Virus record (IMG/VR): IMGVR_UViG_2917413769_000006 | Location: 1 to 26,903 of that record | From: a virus | Taxonomy: Duplodnaviria; Heunggongvirae; Uroviricota; Caudoviricetes | DNA length: 26,903 nucleotides | Reading direction: 5' to 3' (one strand) | In this document: positions 1-16,746 of the stretch, one piece after another | Numbering within the stretch: position 1 is the stretch's first letter | Layout: each line of letters begins with the position of its first letter | Position numbers and translations under genes: made by a program | The notes under the pieces: generated by a model | Told to the model about the DNA's origin: nothing | Seen by the model: the letters and a program-made list of their open reading frames with translations, nothing else | The model's database searches: none

Positions 1-273
1 ATGAAAAACAGAGAATCCAATGTCAGCAGCCTGCAAGAATTAGCCGATTTTAACGTCAGCTATTCCCTGCTCACAAACGAAGTCTATCTGTCTGCATCAT
101 TCATCGATAACATGGCCTGCATACCACATTGGCCAGTAAAGGAATTCCCAGATCAGTTTATGTGTGATCAGTTTATGTGTATCTCACGAACTCGCGCAAA
201 AGAACTGATAAATGAGTTACAGAAGGCAATCAACTACATGGATGCAGGTATTGATAACTCCCATGGTAGGTGA
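1..273 (+). CDS. hypothetical protein; 3' end interrupted by IS insertion (stop codon supplied by the IS terminus)
   Basis: 90-codon ORF from the first base of the window; its stop TGA (271-273) is the first 3 nt of the IS left end. Contains a perfect in-frame 15-bp tandem duplication (151-165 = 166-180, DQFMC twice). No recognisable family. Confidence 0.4.
   Translation: MKNRESNVSSLQELADFNVSYSLLTNEVYLSASFIDNMACIPHWPVKEFPDQFMCDQFMCISRTRAKELINELQKAINYMDAGIDNSHGR
151..180 (+). repeat. perfect 15-bp tandem duplication gatcagtttatgtgt x2
   Basis: Direct reading: 151-165 and 166-180 are identical; in frame within ORF 1-273; each copy carries a GATC site. Confidence 0.95.
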
Positions 274-334
274 TGTAGCCCCCAGAAACACCGGACAGTA
301 GCTGTATCTCCAGATAAGAGATAGGCTTGAATAT

Positions 335-685
335 ATGTCTAACACTAACGCCAATTTTGAGATGACCGGGATCCTGTTAGGGCAAGAAGTCCGTAAACGT
401 AAAACTCCTCAGGAGAAAATCGCCATTATCCAGCAGACGATGGAGCCGGGTATGAATGTCTCCCATGTCGCCCGCCTGCATGGTATCCAGCCCAGCCTGC
501 TGTTTAAATGGAAGAAGCAATATCAGGAAGGCAGCCTCACCGCCGTTGCGGCCGGAGAGGAAGTCGTTCCTGCTTCTGAGCTTACAGCTGCTCTGAAGCA
601 GGTCCGGGAGCTTCAGCGCCTTCTGGGCAAGAAGACGATGGAAGTTGAGATCCTGAAAGAAGCGGTGGAGTACGGCCAGTCGTGA
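335..685 (+). CDS. IS3-family transposase OrfA (HTH DNA-binding, InsC-like)
   Basis: 116-aa ORF with ATG at 335; strong resemblance to IS2 OrfA; ends TGA 683-685 immediately before the orfB start. Confidence 0.9.
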
Positions 686-687
686 AA

Positions 688-1569
688 ATGGATAGCGCAC
701 GCGCCCTTGTTGCCAAAGGACGGGGAATAGCCCTGGTCAGCCGCACCATGGGCGTGTCGCGTGCGCAGCTGTCACTGCGAGTTAACCGTTCTGCCGACTG
801 GCAGGACAGGCGCTGTAACCGGCGTAATGACGAAGCAGACGCTGAAATACTGACGGATATCCTCGATATCATCAGCGATATGCCGAGTTATGGTTATCGA
901 CGCGTGTGGGGCATCCTGCGCAAGCAACGTCGCACTGAGGGAGAGCCACCGGTGAACGCCAAACGGCTTTACAGGATAATGAGCGAGCATAACCTGTTGT
1001 TGTTGCATGACAAACCAGAGCGACCGAAGCGTGAACACAAGGGAAAAATCGCGGTGGCAGAAAGCGATATGCGCTGGTGTTCAGACGGCTTCGAGTTCGG
1101 CTGCGACAACGGTGAAAAACTGCGGGTGACGTTCGCGCTGGACTGCTGCGACAGAGAGGCCATAGACTGGGCAGCGAGCACGGGAGGCTACGACAGTTCG
1201 ACCGTACAGGATGTGATGCTGAGGTCGGTGGAAAAGCGCTTCGGCGACAGGTTGCCGGACACACCAGTGCAGTGGTTGACGGATAACGGTTCAGCGTATA
1301 CTGCGCATGAAACGCGGAGGTTCGCCAGAGAGCTGAATCTTGAGCCCTGTACAACAGCGGTGAGCAGTCCGCAGAGTAATGGCATGGCCGAACGGTTCGT
1401 GAAGACGATGAAAGAAGACTATATCGCGTTCATGCCAAAACCGGATGTGAGAACAGCCCTGCAAAACCTTGCAGCAGCGTTCACGCATTACAATGAAAAC
1501 CACCCGCACAGCGCGCTGGGATATTACTCTCCGAGGGAATACCGGCGGCAGCGGGCATCGTTAACTTAA
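688..1569 (+). CDS. IS3-family transposase OrfB (DDE integrase-like catalytic domain, InsD-like)
   Basis: ORF in the -1 frame relative to orfA; ATG at 688 (MDSARAL...) with GTG at 682; rve-type motifs ([21 protein letters not shown]). The A6G slippery motif that IS2 uses for the OrfAB fusion is not present here (sequence is CAGTCGTGAAAATGG). Confidence 0.9.
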
Positions 1570-1627
1570 GATACAAAAGCGGTCCGGAGATAGCGGGTCA
1601 AGATCATAACTCCCATGGTAGGTTCAA

Positions 1628-1999
1628 CTAGCTTTCAACGTCACACATAGCGACAGGAAATTTTTTGTACAGCGTAGATATTCCAACATCGTAGATAATT
1701 GAAACCTGCTTTTGCTCCATTCCATTTTTTATCAATCGTCCCATTTGCGCCCATTCTTCACTACTAAACTTTGGGCGCCTTCCACCAATACGCCCTTCAG
1801 CTCGTGCGGCTGCTAAACCAGCCCGGGTGCGTTCGACTATAAGCTCCCTTTCCATTTCTGCCAGTGCACCCATTACATGAAAGAAGAATCTCCCCATCGG
1901 CGTACTCGTATCGATGCTATCCGTCAGGCTCCGGAAGTTAACCCCTTTCTCCTGCAGTTCCTCCACTAACACAACAAGATGTCGCATGCTGCAACCGCA
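1628..1999 (-). pseudogene. DNA invertase (Pin/Gin/Hin-type serine recombinase), 5'-truncated: catalytic N-terminus missing
   Basis: Minus-strand ORF MRHLVVLVEELQEKGVNFRSLTDSIDTSTPMGRFFFHVMGALAEMERELIVERTRAGL... is near-identical to the C-terminal two-thirds of Pin-family invertases as I recall them; resemblance stops about 4 codons upstream of the first Met and an in-frame stop follows, so roughly 65-70 N-terminal residues including the active-site Ser are absent. Confidence 0.85.
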
Positions 2000-2180
2000 T
2001 GAACTTTACCGCGCGCAGGGCTTCCCGGAGTGGTACATCATCGACCAGGACTATCGGGGCAAGAAGTACGCGAAGGACAAACAGGTTGCGCGCTGCGGTA
2101 ACGCTGTTCCTCCGCCTTTTGCTGAGGCATTGGTGAGGGCTAATTTACCTGAACTATGCGTGAGCAGGGAGGCTGCGTAA
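1988..2180 (+). pseudogene. C-terminal fragment of a DNA (cytosine-5)-methyltransferase
   Basis: Translation ...HELYRAQGFPEWYIIDQDYRGKKYAKDKQVARCGNAVPPPFAEALVRANL* matches the conserved C-terminal end of C5-MTases (GFP..., GNAVPPP motif X). Only about 60 codons of MTase-like sequence are present; the upstream part of the ORF is unrelated, so this is a remnant. Confidence 0.7.
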
Positions 2181-2461
2181 TGGCAAAATCAGCAGCAGAG
2201 CGCAAAGCAGCACAGCGCGCCCGCCAGTCTGCCGCTGGTGGGCGGAAACTTGAACTGGTGCTGGATGCGCAGGAACTGGAAATGCTTGCCCGAAACTGCG
2301 CAGATCGTCGACTAGGCCGCGCGCCGTATGAAATGGGGGAATATATAGCGCTTCTCATTCGCCAGGATGATGCGCGTGTAAAGGGGAATATCAAATCAAT
2401 CAGCGCGAATCGCTGCGGTAAAACTGACAATGTGACATGTCACGACACCCTAAAACCTTAG
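2180..2461 (+). CDS. small hypothetical protein, possible ribbon-helix-helix DNA-binding protein
   Basis: ATG at 2180 overlaps the TAA of the MTase fragment (TAATG). 93 aa: basic N-terminus, alternating-hydrophobic strand (RKLELVLD) followed by two predicted helices, consistent with an RHH fold. Inference only. Confidence 0.45.
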   Translation: MAKSAAERKAAQRARQSAAGGRKLELVLDAQELEMLARNCADRRLGRAPYEMGEYIALLIRQDDARVKGNIKSISANRCGKTDNVTCHDTLKP

Positions 2462-2556
2462 AGACGAACCGCCAGATAATGTCGGTTTTTCGTTATTAAA
2501 CAGGTTGGTACAAAATAACCACGCTTGATGTTTTAACGTTTTGTGCCTTTAAAAGT

Positions 2557-2605
2557 TTGCACTTACTGCCACTTGGGAGTATATATGCTGTACGTTTATA
2601 CAGCA
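2557..2605 (+). promoter_or_regulatory. sigma70 promoter (-35 TTGCAC, 17-bp spacer, -10 TATATA) overlapped by a LexA (SOS) box
   Basis: -35 at 2557-2562, -10 at 2580-2585; immediately downstream 2586-2605 TGCTGTACGTTTATACAGCA fits the LexA consensus CTGT-N8-ACAG with AT-rich spacer; RBS GAGGGAGG at 2613-2620 and ATG at 2625. Confidence 0.7.
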
Positions 2606-2624
2606 CACTTGTGAGGGAGGGAAC

Positions 2625-2816
2625 ATGTTCAAAAAGGCGGAGGTCGGGGAACATCTCCCCGATAACGGTCGCGCTCTCATAACCTGCAAGAATGGTAAGG
2701 TGACAGCACTCAGGAACATCTACGATGATGAGCACGTAGCATCGCTTAAGTCTTTGTTAGAGCTGGCAGAACAAGCGGGTTGTGTCGTTGTTCAAAGAGG
2801 AAAAAATAAGATATAA
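2625..2816 (+). CDS. small SOS-regulated protein (63 aa), function unknown; candidate antirepressor or SOS-induced effector
   Basis: ORF with good RBS directly downstream of the LexA-box promoter; no recognisable motif. Confidence 0.55.
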   Translation: MFKKAEVGEHLPDNGRALITCKNGKVTALRNIYDDEHVASLKSLLELAEQAGCVVVQRGKNKI

Positions 2817-2820
2817 TTAT

Positions 2821-2859
2821 GGTACCGGACTGAGCACCCGGCACCTGTATTTCTGAGCA
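2821..2859 (+). terminator. possible weak intrinsic terminator/attenuator hairpin
   Basis: 8-bp stem (ggtaccgg / ccggcacc, one mismatch) followed by a T-rich tract tgtatttct; lies between the 63-aa ORF and the next gene. A perfect 10-bp palindrome agcaattgct (2856-2865) follows. Confidence 0.3.
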
Positions 2860-2883
2860 ATTGCTGCGCTAAAGGGGAAACCA

Positions 2884-3480
2884 ATGGCGCAGTATTCATT
2901 TGTAAAATCAGCAGGCGGAGTATTAATTCCGGCGACACCTGATGCACGGGAATTTATCGAGAAAAAATTCCGTCTTGGTGCTGTTTTATATGCAGACTTT
3001 AAACAGGCACGTAATGCGGCATTTCACCGTAAATTTTTTGCACTCCTGAATCTTGGTTTCGATTACTGGCAACCGTCGGGCGGTGCAATGTCCCCGGCAG
3101 ATAAAAAACTGGTTCGTGGGTATGTGCAGCTGGTGGCCCATTATGCTGGCCATGAAGAAACACTCCAGGAACTGGCCGATCAGTATCTGCGTGAAGAGGC
3201 AGAAAAACGCGCCGGTAATATCAGCGCTGTAAAATCCTTTGAAGCCTTTCGCGCCTGGGTAACTATTGAGGCGGGTTTTTATACTCAATACGAAATGCCA
3301 GACGGTACTACCCGCAACGAACCCAAATCCATATCGTTCGCCAAAATGGACGATCTCGAGTTTTCCCAACTCTATAAATCCGTACTTGATGTGCTATGGA
3401 ATTATATTTTGTTCCGCACATTTCCCACCCAGCAGGCTGCAGAAAACGCCGCCTCACAATTATTCAGTTACGCCGCATGA
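2884..3480 (+). CDS. nin-region phage protein (DUF1367-like by recollection)
   Basis: 198-aa ORF with RBS; sits directly upstream of, and overlaps by ATGA with, a YbcO-like gene, as in lambdoid nin regions. Family name from memory, not verified. Confidence 0.55.
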   Translation: MAQYSFVKSAGGVLIPATPDAREFIEKKFRLGAVLYADFKQARNAAFHRKFFALLNLGFDYWQPSGGAMSPADKKLVRGYVQLVAHYAGHEETLQELADQYLREEAEKRAGNISAVKSFEAFRAWVTIEAGFYTQYEMPDGTTRNEPKSISFAKMDDLEFSQLYKSVLDVLWNYILFRTFPTQQAAENAASQLFSYAA

Positions 3481-3770
3481 AGAAAATCGATCTCACCAAA
3501 CAGGCGCGCGGTCGCATGTGTACTGTGCGCATTCCAGGTATCTGCAATTTTGATCCAGAAACCAGCGTTCTTGCCCATTATCGCATGAGTGACACCTGCG
3601 GGATGGGAATCAAACCACATGACATGCAAGGCGCAATTGCCTGCAACTGTTGTCATGACGTAATCGATGGCCGTGCAAAAACCGATATTGATCAGGACAC
3701 TCTGAGGCTATATCACGCCGAAGGTGTTTTCCGTACCCAACAAATCTGGAGAGAGGAGGCGTTTATATGA
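3477..3770 (+). CDS. YbcO-like protein (DUF1364), putative Zn-binding nuclease of lambdoid nin regions
   Basis: MKKIDLTKQARGRMCTVRIPGICNFDPETSVLAHYR...ACNCCHDVIDGR: Cys cluster and RIPG.CN..PETSVLAH motif resemble DLP12 YbcO as I recall it; ATGA overlap with the upstream gene. Confidence 0.7.
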   Translation: MKKIDLTKQARGRMCTVRIPGICNFDPETSVLAHYRMSDTCGMGIKPHDMQGAIACNCCHDVIDGRAKTDIDQDTLRLYHAEGVFRTQQIWREEAFI

Positions 3771-4345
3771 TTAACCCATCAACGACAGGAAAGGGTGGTG
3801 AAATGCTGCGATTAAACACCCTCGAGTCAGTCTGGATTCAGGGGAAACTTCGTATGTGGGGCCGATGGTCATATATTGGATCCGGCTCAGGTGGTGACAT
3901 GTTTAATAACCTTCTCGCGTCAAAAAAAGTCAGTAAAACTGCTATTCAGCAGGTGTTGAGGCATCTCAAATCATCGGGTCTGGATCACGGTGAACTGATG
4001 TCATATTTTCTGGACATGCTTTCCGGAAAAGAAAAAAGCAACCTTGCATTCTGTACCGATGAAGAAGGCCTGTTAATGGATGCTGTGATCGGTGAAATAT
4101 TAGTTCGGACTGGTCATCAGCGCCTTTTTAAATTGGTAGTTGATCGGTACAAGGATCGTATGAGTAAGAAGGCTATGGCAAGAGAACTGAATACTCGTCA
4201 CCCGGAATGGTGCCTACGTACCTGCGAAAGTCGAATTGATGTCTGGTTGCAGATGGCAGAAGCCATGCTGTACTTACCAATGTGTGATGTATTCGATAAA
4301 AAAGCTGATCGATTCCGGTTGCAAAGTTGCGCGGGGATTGCTTGA
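3767..4345 (+). CDS. late-gene antiterminator Q-like protein
   Basis: Position immediately upstream of terminator hairpins and the lysis cassette; N-terminal LESVWIQGKLRMWGRW resembles the LERWG.W start of Q-family antiterminators (QuuD-like). Alternative start ATG 3803. Confidence 0.65.
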   Translation: MINPSTTGKGGEMLRLNTLESVWIQGKLRMWGRWSYIGSGSGGDMFNNLLASKKVSKTAIQQVLRHLKSSGLDHGELMSYFLDMLSGKEKSNLAFCTDEEGLLMDAVIGEILVRTGHQRLFKLVVDRYKDRMSKKAMARELNTRHPEWCLRTCESRIDVWLQMAEAMLYLPMCDVFDKKADRFRLQSCAGIA

Positions 4346-4395
4346 ATTCAGCTATGCTCGCGAAGCTACACCCGCAGCGATAGATAAAAATTAAT

Positions 4396-4425
4396 AACCC
4401 GCCATCAAGCGGGTTTTGTCGTTTC
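4396..4425 (+). terminator. rho-independent terminator hairpin
   Basis: 7-bp GC-rich stem aacccgc / gcgggtt with 6-nt loop, followed by ttttgtcgtttc. Confidence 0.6.
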
Positions 4426-4646
4426 TGGAGGATGGAAAAATGAAATAGCTAAACGGAAATACCGTATTGGATACTATATTTTGGCAACGTGACGACAGCG
4501 TTAATCTGGTCGGGCTCTCATGGCGACGTAGTGAGGGAGAGAAAGCGTAAAGCATCACTGAGTTACGGTTGACGCCCGGTTTAACGCGTAAGTAGTCTGA
4601 TAAAGAGATAGTGCGCCGCGACCCTCACAGCGGCAACGATTAACGG

Positions 4647-4676
4647 ACCCCGGCATTTGCCGGGGTTTTCTTATTT
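4647..4676 (+). terminator. rho-independent terminator hairpin
   Basis: Stem ccccggc / gccgggg with loop attt, followed by ttttcttattt. Confidence 0.65.
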
Positions 4677-4711
4677 AAGGCCGCTGACAGGTCCGTTTAG
4701 TGCAACGCCTT

Positions 4712-4748
4712 TCCCCGTTTCCGCTCCTGGATATTCGGGGATTTTTTA
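4712..4748 (+). terminator. possible terminator hairpin (long loop)
   Basis: ccccg ... cgggg stem followed by attttttat; loop is 18 nt so less canonical. Confidence 0.35.
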
Positions 4749-4789
4749 TCACTCATGCCCGCTGAAGTGGGTATTCAAATTAGGGGGCT

Positions 4790-5194
4790 ATGGTGGGTGA
4801 ACCTGTATCTGCCGTCACCGCTACGACGTTAACCCTGACCAGCGTTACTTTTGCGAGCCTTTTCGCTGATACTCCTGCGGGGGTTTATGTCGGGGCGTTT
4901 GCAGGTGCGGTTGTTTATGTTCTGTCATCGCAGGAATTGAGCAGGTTTGCGCAGGTCGGTTATTTCGTAGCGTCGTTTCTTATCGGCATACTTGGTGCCG
5001 ATTTTACGACAGCAATCCTGAATGGAATGCTCGGCAAGCATTTTCCTGATGGAGTAACGATCGGTAACTGGCTTGGCGCTACTGTAGCGGCAGCGGTTGG
5101 TGTCTGCATTCTGATTTCGTTGCGGAAAATCGACCCCAAAACAATCCTGAGCCGTCTGATATCCGGGGGGAGTGGGGATGGTAACGTTAAATGA
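4790..5194 (+). CDS. putative holin / lysis membrane protein
   Basis: 134-aa ORF with RBS AGGGGG; several strongly hydrophobic segments; first gene after Q and terminators, directly upstream of endolysin. Confidence 0.45.
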   Translation: MVGEPVSAVTATTLTLTSVTFASLFADTPAGVYVGAFAGAVVYVLSSQELSRFAQVGYFVASFLIGILGADFTTAILNGMLGKHFPDGVTIGNWLGATVAAAVGVCILISLRKIDPKTILSRLISGGSGDGNVK

Positions 5195-5474
5195 ATTTCT
5201 CCTGATCGTTAATGCTCTCGCTTGCGCAGTCAGCGCAACAACCCTCGGTACATTCCAGCGCAAAGGGGCGAAACACAAACGTATTGGCGCGTTTCTGGCG
5301 TTAGTGCTGATCATCGCCTGTGGCTCAGTAACTATCCAAATTCTTACCGGGGAATATACCGTAGCAAATCCATCGGAAACGGTGATCAACGTAATGCTGA
5401 CCATATTTATCGTTTCTGCAAAAGGGAATGTGATGCGGGTTTTTAACCGGAATGTAGTCAGTTCGGATAAATAG
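5178..5474 (+). CDS. putative holin / antiholin (small membrane protein)
   Basis: About 98 aa from ATG 5178 (GTG 5172 also possible), three hydrophobic segments, overlaps the preceding ORF and precedes the endolysin. Confidence 0.45.
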   Translation: MVTLNEFLLIVNALACAVSATTLGTFQRKGAKHKRIGAFLALVLIIACGSVTIQILTGEYTVANPSETVINVMLTIFIVSAKGNVMRVFNRNVVSSDK

Positions 5475-5487
5475 CTAAGGTAATTCA

Positions 5488-6099
5488 ATGAATAAATCAC
5501 AGTTTCAGAAGGCGGCTAATATCAGCGCCGAGTTAGCTGCGCGTTGGTTTCAGCCAATTGATGCGGCGATGGCTGAATTTGGCATAACTTCTGCCGATGA
5601 TCAGGCGATGTTTATCGCTCAGGTGGGGCATGAATCTGGAGGTTTCACACGAATTGTGGAAAACCTGAATTATTCTGCTGATGGCTTAAAAGCAACTTTC
5701 GGAAAGTATTTCCCCGGCGACACCGCTCAACAATACGGCCGCACTGCTGATCATCCGGCGGATCAAAAATCAATTGCAAATATTGTTTACGCCCACCGGA
5801 TGGGGAATATTGCAGAAAGCGATGGCTGGAATTATCGCGGTCGCGGCCTGATTCAGATTACCGGGCACGACAATTACCGGGATTGCGGCGCTGGCCTGGG
5901 TGCCGATTTGCTACTGGTTCCGCAGTTGCTGGAGCAGGACGAATATGCGGCTCGTTCGGCAGCGTGGTTCTTTGCCTCGAAAGGCTGCCTGAAACGCAGT
6001 GGCGATATTACGGCAGTAACAAAAATCATCAATGGTGGCACCAATGGCCTTGATGATCGTAAAGCTCGCTACGAAAAAGCGAAATCGGTACTGGTATGA
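5488..6099 (+). CDS. endolysin, glycoside hydrolase family 19 (chitinase-like lysozyme)
   Basis: 203 aa; motifs FIAQVGHESGGF, NYRGRGLIQITG, KIINGGTNGLDDR typical of GH19-type phage lysozymes; position in lysis cassette. Confidence 0.85.
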   Translation: MNKSQFQKAANISAELAARWFQPIDAAMAEFGITSADDQAMFIAQVGHESGGFTRIVENLNYSADGLKATFGKYFPGDTAQQYGRTADHPADQKSIANIVYAHRMGNIAESDGWNYRGRGLIQITGHDNYRDCGAGLGADLLLVPQLLEQDEYAARSAAWFFASKGCLKRSGDITAVTKIINGGTNGLDDRKARYEKAKSVLV

Positions 6100-6635
6100 G
6101 TGCACTGCTTGCCATAGCCGAGAAATACTGGAAGCCACTGGTGATCACGTTGCTGGTGGCTTTTTCGTTATGGCGTGTATTCAACGCGGGATATGAATCG
6201 GCTGATTCTGCCTGGAAGCAACAATGGCTACAGCGAGATCTGGCTGACTCAACCGCAACCTTACATAGAGAGGTTGCCGAGCGAACCGAAGAACGGCGGC
6301 GTCAGCAGGCGGCAGACGAGGAACGAAAACGTGCAGATGAGGAACTGGCAAAAGTACAGGCTGATGCTGACGCTGCTCAGCGGGCTGGTGATGGGTTGCA
6401 GCAACAACTCGCCACGCTACGCAGGCAACTCGCAGGAAGTGAAACCGGCCGCATTTCCGCAATTGCAGCAGCAGGCGCGGCAAAAGCCGAGACCACAAGA
6501 GTGCTTGCCGAGCTGCTTGGCGAATCTGACAAAAGAGCGGGCATCTATGCAAAAGAGGCTGATGAACGCTATGCAGCAGGATCAAGCTGCGAACGAACCT
6601 ACGACAAAGTGACAGGAACAAATAATGGAAATTAA
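6096..6635 (+). CDS. i-spanin (Rz-like)
   Basis: ATGA overlap with endolysin; N-terminal transmembrane helix (WKPLVITLLVAFSLW) followed by charged coiled-coil-like region; contains an embedded ORF in another frame. Confidence 0.75.
   Translation: MSALLAIAEKYWKPLVITLLVAFSLWRVFNAGYESADSAWKQQWLQRDLADSTATLHREVAERTEERRRQQAADEERKRADEELAKVQADADAAQRAGDGLQQQLATLRRQLAGSETGRISAIAAAGAAKAETTRVLAELLGESDKRAGIYAKEADERYAAGSSCERTYDKVTGTNNGN
6337..6612 (+). CDS. o-spanin (Rz1-like outer-membrane lipoprotein), embedded in the i-spanin gene
   Basis: Alternate-frame ORF wholly inside the Rz-like gene; MRNWQKYRLMLTLLSGLVMGC has signal peptide plus lipobox Cys; Pro/Gln-rich mature part with a further Cys (QECLPSC). 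Confidence 0.65.
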   Translation: MRNWQKYRLMLTLLSGLVMGCSNNSPRYAGNSQEVKPAAFPQLQQQARQKPRPQECLPSCLANLTKERASMQKRLMNAMQQDQAANEPTTK

Positions 6636-7023
6636 GTTGGTCAAATACTGGAAGGTTGAGTTATTCGAACAGCAGAAATCAGGGGTTTCTGTATTGATGG
6701 CTGAATCCAGGAAGCCATTTTTCACCGGATACTCAAAAGAGCGAATTAACCCCGAGAAAATCCACGGTAGCGAGTTTATTTCGCTAGCTCCGACTCCTGA
6801 TTCACTGGCACTTGAATCTGTTCGGTTGTATCGGGTTGATGAAATCAAATGCATCCCGGTTTACGAACAGGAAGTTGACTCTTTTGCAGAAGCCGCAGAG
6901 CCACTGATTAAATGGATGGCAGAAAGCGTTCACCCACACCACTCAGCGATCGTAACTTCGACTGGCGCGGAGCTATTGATGAGCGAAAAGACTCACAATA
7001 CCGAAAAATATCTCAAAGACTGA
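6625..7023 (+). CDS. hypothetical protein (moron between lysis cassette and terminase)
   Basis: 132-aa ORF with RBS (aggaacaaataATG); no recognisable motif; followed by about 210 bp of non-coding DNA. Confidence 0.5.
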   Translation: MEIKLVKYWKVELFEQQKSGVSVLMAESRKPFFTGYSKERINPEKIHGSEFISLAPTPDSLALESVRLYRVDEIKCIPVYEQEVDSFAEAAEPLIKWMAESVHPHHSAIVTSTGAELLMSEKTHNTEKYLKD

Positions 7024-7234
7024 CATTACAGAAGCTATTCACGTAGGGGCTTCGATAATGCAAGGCTAAACATTGTCTCCCACCGCGCACCCAGCGCATG
7101 GCAACAGGCGGCATTTATTTTGTTCTGATTTCCCGACAGGTTTGCATTCACGGCAGCATAAACGATCAGTTTCTGATCCATGCGCTATCGCTACTTGCCG
7201 GAGTCATAGTTTTCAGACCAGAGGATTATTCTTT

Positions 7235-8262
7235 ATGTCCAGAGCGAACTGGGAGGAACGATTATCCCTGTTCGCTGATGAATGGAAGCGAACGGAGATA
7301 TCACCAAAAGAGTGGTGTGAAAGAGAAGGGTACTCATGGGGAACGGCGAAAGCATACATCTCGATAAAGGCGGCAAAAGTGCTGCTTTCTTCAGATGGAG
7401 TTATCACCGAGAAGCCAGAAAAAAAAATTGCGAAAAAAAAAGTTCGGAAAAAATCGCGAATTCGGAGATAGAAAAAAGTGCTGAAGAGTTAGCGGAAAAA
7501 AATGGGCTGACGGCGAAGCAAAAAAAATTTATTGCCGAATATCAGAAAGATAATAACGCGACTCAGGCGGCGATTAGAGCCGGGTACAGCGAAAGGAACG
7601 CCGATAAAATCGGACCAGAGTTGCTGGGGAAAACTAGGGTAGCGAAAGAAATCGCGAATCTGCAGAAAGCCCACCTTTCCCGAACATTAATAAAAGCAGA
7701 CGACGTGCTCGAAAAAATGTGGCAGCTCGCCACCTTCGACGCTAACGAGATTTCTCAATATCGGCGTGGTGCCTGTCGTTACTGCTGGGGGTTTGGTCAT
7801 CATTATCAGTGGCGTGATGCAATCGAGTTTGAAGAAAAAAGCTCTGGTGCTCGAGCGAAGAAAGGCAAAGAGCCTAACGATGCTGGTGGATATGGTTACA
7901 ACCATAATGACGAACCTAATCCTGAATGTCCTCGCTGTAACGGTGACGGAGTAGGGCGTGCGCATTTCGCCGATACGACAAAACTTTCCTCTGTTGGCCG
8001 GCTTGCGTATTCCGGTACGAAGCTGGTTAAAGGTGGCATTGAGATTACTGCCATCAGCCGGGAAAAAATGTTTGAAGCGATTATGCGTAGATTAGGCCTT
8101 TCCGATACCGAACTGGCCCAACGGCTGCTTGAGCTTGAAATACGCAAACGTACTGCTGAGGCAGAACGTCTTGAGCATGAAACGGAGCTGAAGCGAAAAG
8201 GCAAAAGCGATGAGAAGCCGACCATCGTTATTAAACTGGTGAATTCCCCTGATGACGACTGA
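7235..8262 (+). CDS. terminase small subunit (P27/Terminase_2-like), reading frame split within A-rich tract 7419-7441
   Basis: N-terminal HTH-like segment MSRANWEERL...ISPKEWCEREGYSWGTAKAYIS from ATG 7235 stops at 7471; the Terminase_2-like core (LTAKQKKFIAEYQKDNNATQAAIRAGYSERNA...) continues in the adjacent frame to 8262. The two frames overlap across two A9 runs (7419-7427, 7433-7441). Confidence 0.65.
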
Positions 8263-9523
8263 ACACGTTATTAAGTTTTTGCCATTTCACGACGGGCAGA
8301 AAAAGATTTATCGATCTCCAGCAAAGAGAAAAGTAATCCGTGCTGGTCGCCGTTATGGCAAAACGACAATGCTTGAGCAGGCCGGGGGAAACTGGGCGGC
8401 ACGACAAATGCGAGTCGGTTGGTTTGCCCCGTCATATAAAATTCTTCTTCCGTCGTTCAAAGCGATTCGGGAACTGTTGAAGCCGATCACAACCAGTTCA
8501 AGTAAGACCGATTCGATTATTGAGACCATTGGCGGCGGTCAGGTCGAATTCTGGACTCTGGATAACCCCGACGCTGGGCGATCCCGTAAATATCACAAAG
8601 TCATCATTGATGAGGGAAGCCTGGTCAAAAAAGGCATGCGTGATATCTGGGAACAGGCAATCGAGCCGACACTGCTGGATTTCGACGGTGATGCTGTAAT
8701 GGCCGGTACGCCTAAGGGTGTGGATGATGAGAATTTTTTCTATCAGGCCTGCAATGATAAATCGATGGGGTGGGAGGAGCACCACGCGCCAACAGCTGCG
8801 AACCCAACGATTAACCCCGCAGCACTGGCGAGGATTATTGACGGTCGCCCGCCGATGGTTGTGCAGCAGGAATATAACGCAGAGTTTGTGGACTGGCGCG
8901 GACAGAACTTTTTCAAACTCGATTGGCTGCTGGAGAATGGCGAAGCTGTCGATTATCCGTTTGCCTGCGATACCGTTTATGGCGTTGTTGACTGTGCGCA
9001 GAAGGGGCAGTTACAGAACGACGGATCTGCGTGCATCTGGTTTGCGCTAAATTCGCTGCCGACGCCTCACCTGGTCATTCTCGATTGGGACATTATCCAG
9101 ATTGACGGTTATTTCCTGAAAGATGTGGTGCCGCAGTGGATAAACAAGGCCAAACAGCTTAGCGAAATCTGCCGGGCACGCATGGGCACCACCGGGCTGT
9201 TTATTGAGGATAAGGCCACCGGCATTACGCTGCTGCAACAAGGCGCTAATGAAGGCTGGAACGTTCACCCCATCGATAGCGAGTTAACGGCGCTGCCGAA
9301 AGAATCTCGCGCCATCAATATTTCTGGATATGTGGCGTCCGGGAAAGTTCGCATTTCTAAATACGCCTTTGACAAAATCGTTGAGTACAAGCAGTCGAAG
9401 AAAAATCATCTTCTGACACAGGTGCTCAAGTTCATCATCGGTGAAGAAGACCAGGACGACGATCTGTTTGATTGCTTTAACTACGGCGTCGCGCTGGGTC
9501 TGGGTAACGGAGAGGGGTTCTGA
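8252..9523 (+). CDS. terminase large subunit
   Basis: 423 aa; Walker A-like GRRYGKTT near N-terminus, acidic motif VIIDEG; overlaps terS stop. Confidence 0.85.
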   Translation: MTTEHVIKFLPFHDGQKKIYRSPAKRKVIRAGRRYGKTTMLEQAGGNWAARQMRVGWFAPSYKILLPSFKAIRELLKPITTSSSKTDSIIETIGGGQVEFWTLDNPDAGRSRKYHKVIIDEGSLVKKGMRDIWEQAIEPTLLDFDGDAVMAGTPKGVDDENFFYQACNDKSMGWEEHHAPTAANPTINPAALARIIDGRPPMVVQQEYNAEFVDWRGQNFFKLDWLLENGEAVDYPFACDTVYGVVDCAQKGQLQNDGSACIWFALNSLPTPHLVILDWDIIQIDGYFLKDVVPQWINKAKQLSEICRARMGTTGLFIEDKATGITLLQQGANEGWNVHPIDSELTALPKESRAINISGYVASGKVRISKYAFDKIVEYKQSKKNHLLTQVLKFIIGEEDQDDDLFDCFNYGVALGLGNGEGF

Positions 9524-10959
9524 TGCAGGACGACGATATTTGCATGGGTAGTAATGCTGGCGTCCTCAGTAAGATTCTGGAGGGCGACAGCATTGAACCC
9601 GGTGCGCAGGCGGGGTATGAGCTCTGCAAGCTGATTTACCTGTTTCACCCGCTGGGCGGAAAGATGGTCGACCGACCGATAAAACTGGCGATGTCGGAAC
9701 CACGAACCGTACATGTAACGCGCGGGCCTGAGAAGCGGTTGCGTGAGGCGTTCGAACGGGAATGGAAAGCGATTAAAGCCGATCGCATTATTGCGAATAC
9801 TGCACGCCAGTCCCGTATTTATGGTGTTGGCGCAGTCGTGATGCTCATTGAAGGCGAGCCCACGAACGAGGCCGCAGGGTTCGATACGCTTTACAGAAAA
9901 TCCATCACCTTTAACGTGCTGGATCCGCTGAACACTGCCGGTTCTGTAGTGCTCAATCAGGATCCTAACTCTGCTGATTTCCAGAAAGTGGGAAGCGTTA
10001 CCGCGGCAGGCAAGCCTTATCACCATAGCCGTTGCTGCGTGATGATGAACGAGGATCCGATCTATCTGGCCTACACGCCATCGTCTTTCGGGTTTGCCGG
10101 GCGCAGCGTTTACCAGCGTGCACTTTATCCACTGAAATCATTCATTCAGTCGATGCGCGCTGATGACATGGTGACGATTAAAGCCGGGCTGCTGGTGGCG
10201 TTCATCAAACAGGCCAGCTCCATCGTCAATAACATGATGCAGAAAATGTCCGGGATTAAACGCTGGATGTTGAAACGCGGTGGTAACGGTGACGTGTTGC
10301 AGGTAGGAGAGAATGACAAGATTGAATCTCTCGACATGCAGAACCTCGAAAAGCCGCTGGATACTGCCCGTAACCACATTCTGGCGAATATCGCGACGGC
10401 GGCAGATATGCCCGCGATTCTGCTCAACAGTGAGACGTTTACGCGCGGGTTTGGTGAAGGAACAGAGGATGCAAAAGCGGTCGCCCAGTATATCGACGAT
10501 GTACGTAAAGATTTGCAGCCGCTTTATGATTTTTTCGTGCGCATCGTTCAGTACCGGGCGTGGTCACCTGAATTTTTCGACGCTCTGAAAAACGATTTGC
10601 CCGAGTACAAGAGTCTCAGTTGGGAGGCGGCTTTCAGTTCCTGGGTGAACAATTTTGAATATGTCTGGCCTTCGTCTCTGAAAGAGCCGGAAAGTGAAAA
10701 AGTCAAAGTCGATGAAACGCGCTTTAAGGCGATCACTGAGATGTTGACTGTGCTGCTTCCGCAACTCACCAAAGACCCGGAAAACAGGGCGACGCTTATT
10801 AAGTGGGCCTGTGAGAATGCCAACATGAACGAAAACCTGTTTGCCGATCGGCTTGAGCTGGATTATGAGCTGCTGGAGAAATTCCCTCCGGATCCACCTT
10901 CAACAAGCAATGATAGGGAGGATGGTGATAATGGCCTCATTCGTGAAAGAGCTGCGTGA
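9523..10959 (+). CDS. portal protein
   Basis: 478-aa ORF immediately after terL (ATGA overlap); size and position; no motif independently confirmed. Confidence 0.7.
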   Translation: MQDDDICMGSNAGVLSKILEGDSIEPGAQAGYELCKLIYLFHPLGGKMVDRPIKLAMSEPRTVHVTRGPEKRLREAFEREWKAIKADRIIANTARQSRIYGVGAVVMLIEGEPTNEAAGFDTLYRKSITFNVLDPLNTAGSVVLNQDPNSADFQKVGSVTAAGKPYHHSRCCVMMNEDPIYLAYTPSSFGFAGRSVYQRALYPLKSFIQSMRADDMVTIKAGLLVAFIKQASSIVNNMMQKMSGIKRWMLKRGGNGDVLQVGENDKIESLDMQNLEKPLDTARNHILANIATAADMPAILLNSETFTRGFGEGTEDAKAVAQYIDDVRKDLQPLYDFFVRIVQYRAWSPEFFDALKNDLPEYKSLSWEAAFSSWVNNFEYVWPSSLKEPESEKVKVDETRFKAITEMLTVLLPQLTKDPENRATLIKWACENANMNENLFADRLELDYELLEKFPPDPPSTSNDREDGDNGLIRERAA

Positions 10960-11806
10960 AGCCATTAAACATTTTCTGGAGTACGGTTACAGCAGCGAAG
11001 AAAGCCTCATTATGTGGACTGAGCGCCTGCGTAATGCCACTGAAAATAAGGTCGATGGCAATGACTTGTATCGATATACCAGTCGCCGGTTAACTGCTGC
11101 TTATGATTTGGAAATTGGCCGGGGAAAAGCGCTGAAACGCCACATAGGGGTGAGCCGCTTCACGCTGAATTATCTTGAGCCAAAACTGCGCGCCGAGCTG
11201 GACCGCCGGATCATGGCATCCGCTGGCCTGATAAAACTCAACCGTTCGCAGGCTATCGACAAAACAATTCAACGTTTCAGCGGGTGGGCAACCAGTATCC
11301 CACCGATAAGTGAAATCAGCGTTGGCCTGTCGGCTTCTTCCCGAACGAGTGCAATTGCCACTAGTCAGCACATCGCAAAGTCAGCTCGCCAGATTGATTT
11401 CGAGCAGCGCCGGGTGATGGTGGATCAGACACATAAGCTGATTGCCAATATCGATAACATCATTGCGACCGATGGCGGGGCGATTGCGGCGGTGTGGCAC
11501 AGCCACTGGCGCCAGCCAAATTATGATTTCCGTGAGCCTCATAAGGAGCGTGATTTACTGGTGTACGCCATTCGTGGCAACTGGGCGATGAAAAAGGGTT
11601 TCATGAAGGTCGGTCCGGCGGGCTATCTGGATGAAATCACCCAGCCCGGCGAAGAGGTGTTCTGCCGTTGCTATCTCACCTATATCTACAACGTCCGAAG
11701 CCTTCCTGATGAGATGAAAACCGAAAAATGGCGAAAGTTCATCGAGGGAAACAAATCTGTCGGTCGTCGTTCTGCAAACTTTGAGGCCATAAAAAACGGA
11801 GGATAA
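10931..11806 (+). CDS. head morphogenesis protein (Mu F-like / minor head protein)
   Basis: About 291 aa from ATG 10931 with RBS GGGAGGA (ORF open from 10841); position after portal. Confidence 0.55.
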   Translation: MASFVKELREAIKHFLEYGYSSEESLIMWTERLRNATENKVDGNDLYRYTSRRLTAAYDLEIGRGKALKRHIGVSRFTLNYLEPKLRAELDRRIMASAGLIKLNRSQAIDKTIQRFSGWATSIPPISEISVGLSASSRTSAIATSQHIAKSARQIDFEQRRVMVDQTHKLIANIDNIIATDGGAIAAVWHSHWRQPNYDFREPHKERDLLVYAIRGNWAMKKGFMKVGPAGYLDEITQPGEEVFCRCYLTYIYNVRSLPDEMKTEKWRKFIEGNKSVGRRSANFEAIKNGG

Positions 11807-13381
11807 GTGAAAACCTACGCTGCCGGGATCCTGTTCAAGTCTGGCGGGAAAATATTTCTGGTAAAGCGTGGGGATGATGGTTCATGGGCGGTACCGGGTG
11901 GGAAACTCGAAGAGGGCGAAACGCCGGAAGCCGCAGCAAGGCGTGAAGTGATGGAAGAATGCGGGTTTGATTATTCCAGCCCCCTGACGCCGCATACCCT
12001 GATTGATGGCTATGTTACCTATCTTGCTGATGATGTTGAGCAGTTCGACGCGGTTCTGAATGAGGAGAATCAAGCTTATGGCTGGTTTTCTCCTGCTGAA
12101 CTGCCCGATCCGCTACATCCCGGCATGGTGGCGATGCTTGATGCCGAACCACTAAATGAAATGGACGTTGCCGGGCTTATCGCTCACGGGCAACTCACAT
12201 CCCCGCAATTTTTCAGAAATATGTACCTGTGGGCGCTGCGTATCACCGGAACGGGTGTTACCTGGCGATCCAGATTCAGGCAATACGCCTACCGATCCCC
12301 TGAAAACTATCTGACGGATGAATTCCTCGCCCGGTGCTCTGGGCTGCCGGTTATCTGGTGGCACCCGGAGAAAAACACGCTCAGCAGCGAGGAATTCGCC
12401 TCAAGGACGATCGGGACCATCGCGTTTGCCTGGATAAAGGGTGATGAGGTGTGGGGAATGGCCCGCATCTATGACACCGACGCCGCTGCGAATCTTTCAA
12501 CGCGGCAACTGAGCACATCCCCCACGGTGGTGGGCGGCGATGACGTTCTGATCAACGTCGACGGTGAACCGCTGCTGCTGGAAGGAACTCCGGAATTGTT
12601 AGATCACCTTGCGATTTGTGAACAGGGCGTCTGGGACAAGCTGGGAGAACCGACGGGAGTTAAATCCGACACACTTGTAAACGAGGTCCAGAAAATGGAT
12701 GAAGAAAAATTATTAGCACTCATTAACCAGGCGCTGGACGCTCGCGAAGCCCGCGCAAAGGCTGACGCCGAGGAAAAAGCGAAAGCAGATGCAGAGGCCG
12801 CAGAAAAGGCTAAAGCCGATGAAGACGCCGCCCGCATTAAGGAAGAGGAAGAAAAAGCGAAGGCTGACGCCGAGGCAAAAGCGAAAGCTGATGCGGAGGC
12901 AGAAGAAAAGGCCAAAGCGGACGCCGAGCTGGAGAAAATCCGCGCAGACATGGAAGAAATGAAAAGCCGTGTGCCGCAGGAACTCAGCGACGAAGAGCGC
13001 AATGAGATCGCTGATACCCAGTGCAAAGCTGACAGCGTATTTGCCTCTTTCGGCGAACGCGCGCCGCAACCTATGGCGGGTGAACGTGCGCTGCCCTACC
13101 GCCGCCGCATCATGACCCGCCTGCAGAAATATTCTCCTGATTATAAAGAAGTGGATCTGCATGCCATCGCAGACAGCCAGCTCCTGAGCATCGCGGAGAA
13201 AAAAATCTATGCCGATGCGCAGGCATCAGCGGCATCCAGCCTGGAACCCGGCGCTGGGCTGCGTGAAGTCATTCGCACCGATGCCACCGGGCGCCGTATC
13301 AGCACCTTTATCGGCGATCCGTCAGCAACATGGGCGCCTTTCCAGGCTGTCAGCCGTAAAGTCGCTGGCATCAAACAGTAA
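11807..13381 (+). CDS. Nudix hydrolase domain fused to head scaffold/protease-like protein
   Basis: GTG start 5 nt after RBS ACGGAGGA. Residues about 1-110 form a Nudix fold with a complete Nudix box [24 protein letters not shown] (G-x5-E-x7-REUxEExGU). Remainder: globular middle domain, imperfect KADAEA-type coiled-coil repeats (about 12747-12930), basic C-terminus; occupies the protease/scaffold slot between the F-like gene and capsid genes. Confidence 0.75.
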
Positions 13382-13401
13382 TCAACCGGAGAACAAACAA
13401 C

Positions 13402-14274
13402 ATGTCGAGCGTTTTGACAGTAAATCCAATGCAGACCACTAACGCCCGCGGTACTTTTTACGTCAAGTCTGATGGTCTTATTCAGGGTGTGGCGCTGGAC
13501 GATCCGGCGGCGCGTTATGCGCTGGCATCCGGTACTGTTGCCAGCGATGAAGTTAAACCAATGTGGGGCGGTCTGGCTGTAAATGAACTGGTTCCCGGCG
13601 CTTCGTCTGCTCCGCGTAGCAGTATCATCAAGCGGGCAGGCACACTTACTCAGCTGGTGGGATTCACAGTTTTCAATCAGGCACATAACGGCCTGACCAC
13701 TCCGCAATCACCGGTACCGCTTTACCTCAGCAATATGAGCGTTTCTTTTTATCGCCTGGGTTCGGGGATGCGTGTTCCGGTTAAAGCTTCCGATGCTGTT
13801 ATCTCACTGGCCAGCGCGGGGATCTCCGTTAATCAGCCGCTGGTGTGGAATTTTGCTGAGGATTGTCTGGATGTATTCAGCACTGCGGCGGCTGATGTGG
13901 CTACAACAGCTATCACATGGACCGCACCCACCGCGAATGCGGCTGGATATGCAACAGCGACGACCGACAGCGCTCATGGACTGAAAGTGGGCGCATATGT
14001 CGCGATTTCTGGTGCGGCTCCGGTTACTTACAACGGTACCGTTCAGGTGCTCAGCGTGCCGTCGGCGACAACTTTCACCTTTACGCCGGTTTCAGTGCCT
14101 GCAGGCAATGCGACCACTCAGGGTACCGTAGGTGCGGTAACAGTGCAGGATGTCGCCCTTCCGGTAAAAATCATCGAAATGCAGATGGGTAACAGCAAAA
14201 CCGTTTCTTACGATGCGGCGACGGGCTTTGCTACCTGGAACGACAGCGGAAACGCTGCGGTAATTCTGCTGTAA
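13402..14274 (+). CDS. putative head structural protein (decoration-like, Ig-like beta-rich)
   Basis: 290 aa, Thr/Ala/Val-rich beta-type composition (TFTFTPVSVPAGNATTQG); located immediately before the putative major capsid gene. Confidence 0.4.
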   Translation: MSSVLTVNPMQTTNARGTFYVKSDGLIQGVALDDPAARYALASGTVASDEVKPMWGGLAVNELVPGASSAPRSSIIKRAGTLTQLVGFTVFNQAHNGLTTPQSPVPLYLSNMSVSFYRLGSGMRVPVKASDAVISLASAGISVNQPLVWNFAEDCLDVFSTAAADVATTAITWTAPTANAAGYATATTDSAHGLKVGAYVAISGAAPVTYNGTVQVLSVPSATTFTFTPVSVPAGNATTQGTVGAVTVQDVALPVKIIEMQMGNSKTVSYDAATGFATWNDSGNAAVILL

Positions 14275-14291
14275 TCAGGAGAGGCTAAGAG

Positions 14292-15323
14292 ATGCCAGCT
14301 ATTACACCCGCTTATCAAATTGTAAACCCGTCGTACATCATGCCGGAAATGATCCTGTCGTATCAGCAGGCGTCCGGCGCATTTTCTGTCATGGCCAGCG
14401 GTAACCCGCTGGTTCGCCTGTCAGACGGCGACCAGTACGTTTATATGAAACGCCTGGATATTCGCACTCAGGTAACCTCCAGCCAGTCAGGGAATGCCAA
14501 CCAGTTACCCTCTGTTGCACTGGATGCGCGAATGGTCAGCACGCCAACGTATATGTTCCGCGCGCGCGCCATTTACGATCATCACGATATGGCTGCAGCA
14601 GGGAACTGGGGGATTGCACTCCCTGAAGCCCAGCGACTTGGTACCCGACAGGCTATTTTCCAGCAAATGCGTAACGCGCTGCTCTATGGCATGAACCCGG
14701 CTGGTGGTGAGGGCGTTCTGAATACCAACGGCGCAACCACTATCAGCCTGCCGGCAGACAGCGGCGGGAACACTACCGTACTTACTTACGATCATGGCGA
14801 AATGGCAGTGTTTCTGCTGGCGCAGATTCAGGCGATCCGTACCCGTACCATGCAAATGGGGCGGGCGTCACGCATGGTTATCCTCGGTCCTCAGCGCACG
14901 CTGGGTACGATGGAAATGCAGCAGATCGTTCAGTTGACCAGCTACCAGCGTCCGGGCGGTGGTACTTCAACGGTGAAAGGTACCGTCAACGGTGTCTCAG
15001 ATGAGGCAGATTGCGAAATTGAATGGGGCTATGACGATACGCTGATTGGCGCCGGGGCTAATGGTACGGATGCGATCATCATCGCCATGCCGGAAGTTGA
15101 GCGCCCTGAGGTTAACGCGAAAATTAACACCAACGAATTCGCCAAACTTAGCCCTTCACTGGAAGCCACATCACTGATGTTGTGCGACATGGCGGCACCG
15201 CGTGAAATTCCAACGCCGATCGCGGGCGGGGCCATTGATGTGCTGTCCGAACTGCGATCCACCTCTGGCTGGGTGCTTCGCCCTGAGGCGCTGACCATCA
15301 TTTCGATGAAATACAGCGATTAA
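14292..15323 (+). CDS. putative major capsid protein
   Basis: 343 aa with strong RBS; last large head-module gene; followed directly by an intrinsic terminator. Assignment by position and size only. Confidence 0.5.
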   Translation: MPAITPAYQIVNPSYIMPEMILSYQQASGAFSVMASGNPLVRLSDGDQYVYMKRLDIRTQVTSSQSGNANQLPSVALDARMVSTPTYMFRARAIYDHHDMAAAGNWGIALPEAQRLGTRQAIFQQMRNALLYGMNPAGGEGVLNTNGATTISLPADSGGNTTVLTYDHGEMAVFLLAQIQAIRTRTMQMGRASRMVILGPQRTLGTMEMQQIVQLTSYQRPGGGTSTVKGTVNGVSDEADCEIEWGYDDTLIGAGANGTDAIIIAMPEVERPEVNAKINTNEFAKLSPSLEATSLMLCDMAAPREIPTPIAGGAIDVLSELRSTSGWVLRPEALTIISMKYSD

Positions 15324-15346
15324 TTATTAAGTTCCCTCGCTGATTT

Positions 15347-15380
15347 CCCTGCGATCCGGAAGGTTCGCGGGGATTTTTTT
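15347..15380 (+). terminator. rho-independent terminator downstream of capsid gene
   Basis: 8-bp stem ccctgcga / tcgcgggg (one G-U pair) with 10-nt loop followed by attttttt. Confidence 0.65.
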
Positions 15381-15394
15381 ATCCAGGAGTAAAC

Positions 15395-15880
15395 ATGAAA
15401 CTGTACATCGCCAATACCACCAAACAGCGCCACGATTTCGCCTATCGCAAGCCGGAGACCGGACGCCTTGTGTATCACCCGATTAATGCGGGTTCTCAGG
15501 CTGTTGTCATCGATGGCACCCGCGCCGAAATCGACCTCATTATTCAGCAGCACGCCGATTACGGCCTGATTGATGCGACAAAAATCGACCAGAACCGCAT
15601 ATATATCGGGCTGTGTTACAGCGTAGATAAACCTGTCGCATCGAAAGTCATTGAAAAAGCCATGCGGGATAACGACAGCCACCTGAACCGAGCGGCACAC
15701 GATCGCCGTCAGGCATCCGTGCTGGCAACAAATAACGCTCTCACCGAGCAGGAAAACGGCTATCTCGGTGAGCTTGAGGTCAGTGCAGAGCAGCGACTGA
15801 GCGCCACCGATGACCGTGACGAAACAGCGTTTGTCGATGAGACGCTGGCTGTGAGTACGGGATCCAAAAAGAAAAAATAA
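15395..15880 (+). CDS. hypothetical protein with acidic C-terminal half
   Basis: 161-aa ORF with RBS CCAGGAG beginning right after the terminator; no recognisable family. Confidence 0.45.
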   Translation: MKLYIANTTKQRHDFAYRKPETGRLVYHPINAGSQAVVIDGTRAEIDLIIQQHADYGLIDATKIDQNRIYIGLCYSVDKPVASKVIEKAMRDNDSHLNRAAHDRRQASVLATNNALTEQENGYLGELEVSAEQRLSATDDRDETAFVDETLAVSTGSKKKK

Positions 15881-15892
15881 GCGAGGGACGCC

Positions 15893-16318
15893 ATGCCTGA
15901 ACTGGCCGGATTTATCCAGTTTATTCGTAATACGATGGGGATTAATGCATACGCGTTACCTGATGACGATCCGGCCATTAATCTTACCTGGTCAATGTCG
16001 CTGGACTGGGTGAACAGGCAGATCGCCTGCATCAGTCCGGTTCTGTATTCACAGGCTGTTTATAACCTCGCGGCTTCCTTTCTGATTAACTTCGGTCCTG
16101 AGTCTGTCTTCGGTCCGGTGCGCGAGAAACTGGGCATCAACAATTTTACTGCTGGTGTTATCAGCGCTTCCTCTGACGAGTCAACCAGCCAGACGCGGGT
16201 AGTGAGTGACGCACTGAAAAATCTCTCGCTTGCTGACCTGCAACAACTTAAGGACCCTTATGGTCGATGGTATCTGGCAATTGCGCAGCAGTACGGCGAT
16301 CTGTGGGGGCTGACGTGA
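15893..16318 (+). CDS. putative head-tail connector / neck protein
   Basis: 141-aa ORF with RBS, located between head and tail modules. Confidence 0.4.
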   Translation: MPELAGFIQFIRNTMGINAYALPDDDPAINLTWSMSLDWVNRQIACISPVLYSQAVYNLAASFLINFGPESVFGPVREKLGINNFTAGVISASSDESTSQTRVVSDALKNLSLADLQQLKDPYGRWYLAIAQQYGDLWGLT

Positions 16319-16746
16319 AACTTCACCTGGGCGTGATGGACATTCCCTATGAAAACGAGAATACGACCACCGGCGATGTGGCCGAAATTCTTGAGGGAAA
16401 ATACCGGATCATGCAGACGTTCTTCGATCGTCACAGCGAGGAAATTGCGCTGATGATGAGTAATGACCTCGCGGCGGGACTGGAAACTATGTTGGCTGGC
16501 GCGCCGCTGCCTGCGGATCCCTTTGCCGAATCCATGTCACAGGTACATCACCTCTTTGTTGCTTTCCTCGATAACGCAGAGATGAACGGCACAGAAGGTG
16601 TGCCGACTGCTCGCGCGCTTGAGGGGATCAGTAAGCGATTTAAAAACAAGAAAGGGGAGCCACGTCCCTCTTTCATCGATACCGGCATGTTTCAGGCGTC
16701 GATGCGCGCATGGGTAAGCGGGGTGCTGAATGCCTTCCCTAAGTGA
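16315..16746 (+). CDS. putative head-tail joining protein
   Basis: GTG 16315 overlaps upstream stop (GTGA); alternative ATG 16336. Confidence 0.4.
   Translation: MKLHLGVMDIPYENENTTTGDVAEILEGKYRIMQTFFDRHSEEIALMMSNDLAAGLETMLAGAPLPADPFAESMSQVHHLFVAFLDNAEMNGTEGVPTARALEGISKRFKNKKGEPRPSFIDTGMFQASMRAWVSGVLNAFPK

Follow-up and report, generated by a model that had tools for sequence, protein, structure and literature searches.

Prophages typically decay by way of inversions, deletions and IS insertions (review PMC6379469; defective prophage pool of E. coli O157, PMC2669165). The 'grounded' or cryptic prophages treated in these papers are like the element analysed here in that an IS insertion, an internal rearrangement and gene truncations occur in a complete-looking prophage, but the breakpoints described below differ in that they lie at a microhomology of 12 out of 15 bp and coincide with no IS copy, att site or long repeat. 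Pin-type invertases that are active in cryptic prophages can serve host functions (e14 Pin, Qin PinQ; PMC12529663). Unlike these active enzymes, the 119-aa invertase copy at our locus would, judging from its sequence, be unable to work as a recombinase.

The closest described systems are two intact prophages of the same family integrated at tRNA-Ser/yccA, one in E. coli strain 44 (NZ_CM132959.1; L009) and one in ST536 O21:H9 (NZ_CM174221.1; L010). The strain 44 prophage reads tRNA-Ser, int, early-left genes, cI, cro, YdaT, O, DnaB, 226-aa and 82-aa genes and methyltransferase, followed by DUF1367, DUF1364, DUF1133 (Q), lysis, terminase, head, tail, baseplate J and DUF2612 genes, and ends with fibre, TAP, TAP', alternative fibre tip, recombinase, a small terminal gene and yccA. 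TAP stands for the tail-fibre-assembly gene and TAP' for its second, oppositely oriented copy. The ST536 prophage follows the same plan. Its recombinase (L010 13690-14256, minus strand) and its C5 methyltransferase (41083-43155, minus strand) are codirectional; the roughly 27 kb that separate them contain all nin, Q, lysis, head and tail genes. A close relative was not found in the sequenced-phage collection, in which only phage mEp237 matches the methyltransferase tail of our locus and a DUF1367 gene matches elsewhere.

We analysed a stretch of Caudoviricetes DNA of 26,903 nucleotides (IMG/VR record IMGVR_UViG_2917413769_000006), here called the window. Near its left end two gene remnants meet at a junction, J1, which is very probably the left end of a 29-kb illegitimate inversion within one lambdoid contractile-tail prophage of Escherichia cryptic clade II. 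The process is ordinary prophage decay, an illegitimate inversion with small losses; this specific inversion is previously undescribed, while the kind of event is well known. Features of the window are listed in Table 1.

Table 1. Coordinates of the features discussed in the text (window positions)
Feature	Position	Strand	Description
Terminal prophage gene adjoining yccA	1..273	+	Function unassigned; 91% DNA identity to strain 44 homologue
IS3-family IS	271..1606	+	1336 bp; OrfA 335-685, OrfB 682-1569; HTH_Tnp_1 and rve domains
Pin/Gin-type serine DNA invertase, 3' remnant	1628..1987	-	119-aa ORF, residues 70-188 of 188
Chimeric 88-aa ORF	1914..2180	+	Made by J1; antisense invertase in frame into methyltransferase tail
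Junction J1	1983..1997	.	15-bp microhomology patch; from three-way alignment
C5 cytosine DNA methyltransferase, 3' remnant	1983..2180	+	Last 65 codons and stop; motifs IX-X only
Inverted block, part within window	1988..26903	+	Methyltransferase tail, nin-like, Q, lysis, terminase, head, tail, baseplate

Source of the window and chromosomal site

The window equals the last 26.9 kb of contig PDIL01000006.1 at 100% identity. The source genome belongs to Escherichia cryptic clade II, which is consistent with a chromosomal flank 90.6% identical to E. coli. A sister assembly (GCA_005781065.1) holds the same DNA on a 300-kb contig, VATL01000016.1, which is identical save for two homopolymer indels and adds 8.4 kb of sequence on the left of the window and 9.4 kb on its right. 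Many of the comparisons below use a 44.7-kb composite in which the window is flanked by sister-contig sequence (L003, window, L006). Relative to the sister contig the window carries two extra A in A-runs, at 7427 and 7433, by which the terminase small-subunit gene is split into ORFs 7073-7471 and 7336-8262. As the window comes from an Ion Torrent draft and the extra A are missing in the sister assembly, the split gene probably reflects Ion Torrent homopolymer errors and not real frameshifts.

To the left of the window lie yccA, tusE, yccX, rlmI, hspQ, yccU, csgI, mgsA and helD. These chromosomal neighbours are the same as in the intact relatives, which places the element at the same site, and its left end adjoining yccA is seen directly. 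The source prophage is probably integrated between tRNA-Ser and yccA; tRNA genes are absent from the window itself. Further similarities to the strain 44 and ST536 prophages include the same orientation at this site, the same terminal gene and invertase at the yccA end, the same early-right layout (DnaB, 226-aa, 82-aa, methyltransferases, DUF1367, DUF1364 and DUF1133 (Q)) and the same late layout, with 91-96% identity in the regions bracketing J1. In contrast to the source, both relatives have a full-length invertase (188 aa), an uninverted late block and an IS-free terminal gene, and ST536 alone has in addition the full-length C5 methyltransferase (690 aa), codirectional with its invertase.

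Two gene remnants at junction J1

On the left side of J1 the 119-aa ORF aligns with the C-terminal part of full-length recombinases and is 91% identical to its counterpart in the strain 44 prophage; its ATG is a native internal Met codon. The Resolvase Pfam match covers just profile positions 79-144 of 145 and is followed by a complete HTH_7 domain (E=2e-11). A full-length relative matches PDB 3uj3 ('DNA-invertase') with E=1e-88 and the gamma-delta resolvase with 7e-32, and by homology the remnant is a member of the Pin/Gin family, an invertase and not a resolvase. Compared to the Pin, Gin, Cin and Hin invertases it retains the C-terminal part of the catalytic domain and HTH_7, but residues 1-69 with the YVRVS(T) serine motif are missing, and the neighbouring crossover site and alternative fibre tip are deleted. 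When the composite was searched by tblastn, the recombinase matched solely with residues 67-186 and with nothing of residues 1-66. The serine nucleophile (at about residue 9-10) lies in the missing part, and the ORF is accordingly read as a pseudogene remnant whose invertase function is presumably dead. The invertase alignment included a Pin sequence as a fourth row, on which no conclusion rests. The scan for promoters and terminators gave nothing over shuffled expectation that would be relevant to expression of either remnant.

On the right side of J1 the translation is 100% identical to residues 626-690 of the 690-aa enzyme from the E. coli ST536 prophage. The DNA is 93% identical to the ST536 methyltransferase gene, and the match runs on colinearly into the downstream genes. 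The Pfam domain DNA_methylase (PF00145) is matched over positions 278-320 of 324 with E=2e-5, above the gathering score, and the C-terminal motifs (IX-X, GNAVPP-type) are colinear with the full-length gene. Both motif I (AdoMet binding) and motif IV (the PCQ catalytic cysteine) are missing, which suggests that the methyltransferase is dead. The C-5 methylase of phage mEp237, which shows 88% DNA identity over 1979-2149, is likewise located upstream of nin-like genes; compared to it, the window retains only the last 65 codons, with the catalytic and AdoMet-binding motifs gone.

A preliminary description of the window had proposed that an invertase without about 65-70 N-terminal codons, including the catalytic serine, meets about 60 retained codons of a C5 methyltransferase at about 1988-1999. 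Its account of the two remnants was borne out by the 69 missing residues and the 65 remaining codons. The junction position was also essentially right. According to the three-way alignment, the switch from invertase-derived to methyltransferase-derived sequence occurs at 1986-1988, within a 15-bp patch with the consensus CGyATrCTGCrACCG: the window tracks the invertase gene to ...GTCGCAT and the methyltransferase gene from GCTGCAACCGCA... onwards. There is no spacer, since the homologies overlap, the invertase match extending to 1996-1997 and the methyltransferase match starting at 1979-1983.

The parental proxy genes match each other at 12 of the 15 bp of this patch. Among the 1,138,627 pairs of 15-mers that the two proxy genes can form in this orientation, none scores higher, and only 11, the J1 pair included, reach this score. 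Because a near-identical intact parent was not found, the microhomology was measured on proxies that are 91-93% identical to the source. A full-length invertase identical to the remnant was not present in a search of 5.8 billion proteins, in which the best full-length invertase was 94% identical and came from Citrobacter. The top-scoring protein of that search, P0001, was set aside as an unrelated, internally duplicated fragment.

J1 also creates an ORF of its own (the 88-aa chimera in Table 1). The gene calls of the sister assemblies omit it, and neither they nor the ORF list gave any sign that it is a gene.

The 28-nt sequence of J1 has no exact match across the GTDB species representatives, and the junction is confined to a few clade II isolates. 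A chimeric short-read contig could produce such a junction, and the Ion Torrent draft with its homopolymer errors would fit this idea. However, the 119-aa junction ORF with the same neighbours is found identically in two NCBI assemblies and in two Logan assemblies, which stem from separate read sets, and neither J1 nor the second joint described below contains a repeat able to mislead an assembler. As J1 is identical across separate assemblies, we conclude that it is not an assembly artefact, an origin that we consider exceedingly unlikely.

Orientation of the late block

How the two remnants came to abut was addressed by comparing gene orientation between the composite and the intact relatives. 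The REARRANGEMENT was traced by BLAST comparison of the composite with the ST536 prophage. The chromosome and the terminal gene up to window position 271 match in plus orientation, window positions 1983-25314 (methyltransferase tail, nin, Q, lysis, head and tail genes) match in minus orientation, and the window-equivalent positions 31018-35528 (82-aa, 226-aa, DnaB and YdaT/cro genes) match again in plus orientation. Comparison with the strain 44 prophage gave the mirror image of this pattern. The block from 1988 to window-equivalent position 31017 on the sister contig, 29,030 bp in total, is therefore inverted relative to both flanks when held against an unrearranged relative.

Beyond the window the gene calls continue on the plus strand with baseplate J, a 207-aa protein, fibre and TAP. 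Genes on the minus strand follow, namely a hexapeptide acetyltransferase, DoxX, a TAP' fragment, the 82-aa and 226-aa genes, DnaB, an O-like gene, YdaT and cro; a cI-like gene on the plus strand comes next. The cI-like protein is 96% identical to its cluster representative. On the sister contig cI, cro, O and DnaB lie in normal orientation at 31-36 kb from the window start.

This layout bears on the origin proposed in the preliminary description, namely one deletion that took away the 5' ends of two divergently oriented neighbours and either fused two adjacent prophages or removed the integrase/immunity/replication region. Its premise that invertases sit at the tail-fibre end and methyltransferase and nin genes in the early-right region agrees with the layout of both intact relatives. 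The remnants are indeed divergent and directly abutting, and DNA has certainly been lost. In the relatives, however, the two genes are codirectional and 27 kb apart, and the intervening DNA, including the late region, has been kept here in inverted form. The immunity and replication genes are present downstream, and no module is duplicated. Since every module occurs once in the composite, nothing suggests two fused prophages. We thus regard the deletion model as very unlikely and prefer an inversion within one prophage.

The second joint and the missing DNA

The right end of the inverted block, J2, is located at window-equivalent 31017|31018 (L006 15909|15910), about 4 kb past the window end, and was seen in a single contig. 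Right of J2 the sequence is 98.9% identical to the ST536 prophage and starts 8 bp past the stop of the 82-aa gene, whereas the sequence left of J2 is the 3' part of TAP' and encodes the equivalent of residues 78-136 of the strain 44 protein. J1 and J2 have no repeat of at least 9 bp in common. J2 does not represent a reciprocal joint with the complementary gene halves, as the 5' halves of invertase and methyltransferase are missing and J2 joins other sequences. By tblastn of the composite we recovered only residues 626-690 of the C5 methyltransferase and only residues 78-136 of TAP'; residues 1-625 and 1-77, respectively, were not found, and neither were the N6 methyltransferase and the alternative fibre tip. 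Measured on the two intact relatives, about 0.9-1 kb is missing from the tail-fibre side, and the methyltransferase/early side lacks about 3.5 kb.

The region next to J2 includes two genes on the opposite strand (L006 14091-15285, window-equivalent about 29199-30393), encoding a hexapeptide-repeat acetyltransferase and a DoxX-family membrane protein. They lie between TAP and the TAP' fragment, within the former invertible fibre segment, had no match among E. coli complete genomes and look like moron cargo.

The middle block might also have been contributed by a second or tandem related phage that was illegitimately joined in reverse to an older prophage relic consisting of the terminal gene and the invertase tail. 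The similarity to the reference prophages is mosaic, with 91% for the invertase, 96% for nin-Q, 66-74% for the late genes and 87% for DnaB, which is compatible with such an origin. Mosaic similarity is usual among lambdoid phages. Against this origin, the middle block supplies precisely the modules that the flanks lack, once each, the right flank is oriented as expected for a prophage at the tRNA-Ser/yccA att site, and two illegitimate joints with a fortuitously exact complement would be required. A second phage as donor therefore appears quite improbable. The single-copy gene content points instead to a probable single element, of which the left end was covered.

A dedicated enzyme has to be considered as well, given that an invertase gene and an IS are both close by. 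The inversion could have been made by the Pin-like invertase acting on a pseudo-crossover site, or by the IS through intramolecular transposition or IS-IS recombination. In the strain 44 prophage, inverted 28-bp crossover sites (TTCTCCCAGACCAA...) bound an invertible tail-fibre segment. These genuine sites are situated within the fibre gene and some 50 bp upstream of the start of the invertase gene, and not at codon 69. Crossover sites of the strain 44 type were found neither in the window nor in the sister-contig piece L006 or the ST536 prophage. The IS ends 380 bp from J1, from which it is separate, with its target duplication intact on both sides, and no IS copy was seen at J2. As crossover sites and IS ends are absent from both joints, we reject site-specific and IS-mediated origins, which seem extremely unlikely.

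As an observation on the ST536 relative, its region L010 13690-14688 holds the full-length invertase with a single set of fibre and assembly genes and lacks a strain 44-type crossover site. That invertase appears to have no obvious invertible substrate.

Proposed course of the rearrangement

The reconstruction of the inversion starts from what was observed directly, namely the two remnants with their breakpoint and microhomology, the inverted orientation of the block and the presence of each gene module once; the joining mechanism itself we infer. In window orientation, the ancestral order would have been yccA, terminal gene, invertase (minus), tail-fibre segment, tail, head, lysis, Q and nin, followed by C5 methyltransferase (minus), N6 methyltransferase, replication genes (minus), cro (minus) and cI (plus). 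Illegitimate joining of a RecA-type-independent kind at the short imperfect inverted homology (12/15 bp) would have linked invertase codon 69/70 to methyltransferase codon about 626 and flipped everything in between. At the other end, J2 would have linked the 3' part of the second tail-fibre-assembly gene with the point 8 bp beyond the stop of the 82-aa gene. The parts presumably lost along the way are the 5' part of the invertase gene, the alternative fibre tip, the 5' part of TAP', and the 5' part of the methyltransferase gene together with the neighbouring N6 methyltransferase.

Since J1 and J2 have no repeat in common, a clean reciprocal exchange alone would be insufficient and an additional loss of DNA has to be assumed. 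Two routes could account for this loss. Two double-strand breaks with resection might have been rejoined under guidance of the microhomology in one event, or a reciprocal microhomology exchange might have come first, its reciprocal joint being removed by a later deletion of about 4.4 kb. The one-event and the two-step route are indistinguishable on these data. The locus would represent a clean natural case of an inversion placed at the best microhomology available between two genes.

Consequences for the prophage

By analogy with lambdoid regulation, transcription from pR would now run through cro, O, DnaB and the 82-aa gene into the TAP' fragment, DoxX and the acetyltransferase, and not into nin and Q. 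Q and the late operon would be uncoupled from pR and would have lost their early promoter. With Q and the late genes severed from pR the prophage is presumably crippled, and the element is probably a recently 'grounded', defective prophage. The late genes themselves look intact. The preliminary description had also expected a defective element. This probably holds, but for a different reason: it had considered a fusion of two prophages or loss of the integrase/immunity/replication region, whereas here the inversion would cut Q and the late genes from pR. A single rearrangement may thus be enough to 'ground' a prophage by cutting its late operon off from early control, even though nearly all genes stay intact. 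Fibre switching has probably been lost too, since the invertase fragment lacks the nucleophile and the substrate sites.

Two further readings, even when taken jointly, strike us as highly unlikely. Firstly, the phage could have been rewired by the inversion and not killed. Once excised and circularised, it would carry the block of hypothetical gene, IS, nin, Q and late genes downstream of the cI-side (pL/int) transcription unit and in the same direction. Expression of Q and the late genes could then come from leftward early read-through or from an outward promoter of the IS, and the result would be an inducible phage with scrambled gene order. Secondly, the 119-aa fragment might inhibit other invertases, in which case the expressed fragment (E-helix region and HTH) would bind the crossover sites of other prophage invertases.

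For annotation, the preferred reading of one inverted, defective prophage means that pseudogene-remnant labels are appropriate for the 119-aa 'recombinase family protein' and for the methyltransferase tail. A map of the locus should show one element with a 29-kb inversion inside it, and not two elements or a remnant carrying late genes only.

Other features of the window

The terminal gene at the yccA end has no Pfam match. Its strain 44 homologue encodes an 87-aa hypothetical protein and overlaps the 3' end of the recombinase gene. In the window its last codons are displaced by the IS, with the native stop at 1629-1631. The gene further contains an in-frame 15-bp tandem duplication at about 163-192 (GATCAGTTTATGTGT twice), which is missing in the strain 44 homologue.

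The IS, whose ends were set by 96%-identical E. coli copies, is of the two-ORF, frameshift type. It is flanked by a perfect 16-bp target duplication (255-270 and 1607-1622). In six of eight E. coli copies of this IS we likewise observed perfect flanking repeats of 15 or 16 bp, each of a different sequence (L011, L013-L017), and these look like true target duplications of 15-16 bp. Target duplications of 3-5 bp are usual in the IS3 family, and our literature search returned no description of such long ones.

A gap of 445 bp (4345-4790) separates Q (DUF1133) from the first holin gene. It is free of tRNA genes, contains several terminator-like hairpins, among them those at 4396-4415 (on both strands) and 4645-4668, and presumably represents the late promoter and Q-utilisation/terminator region.
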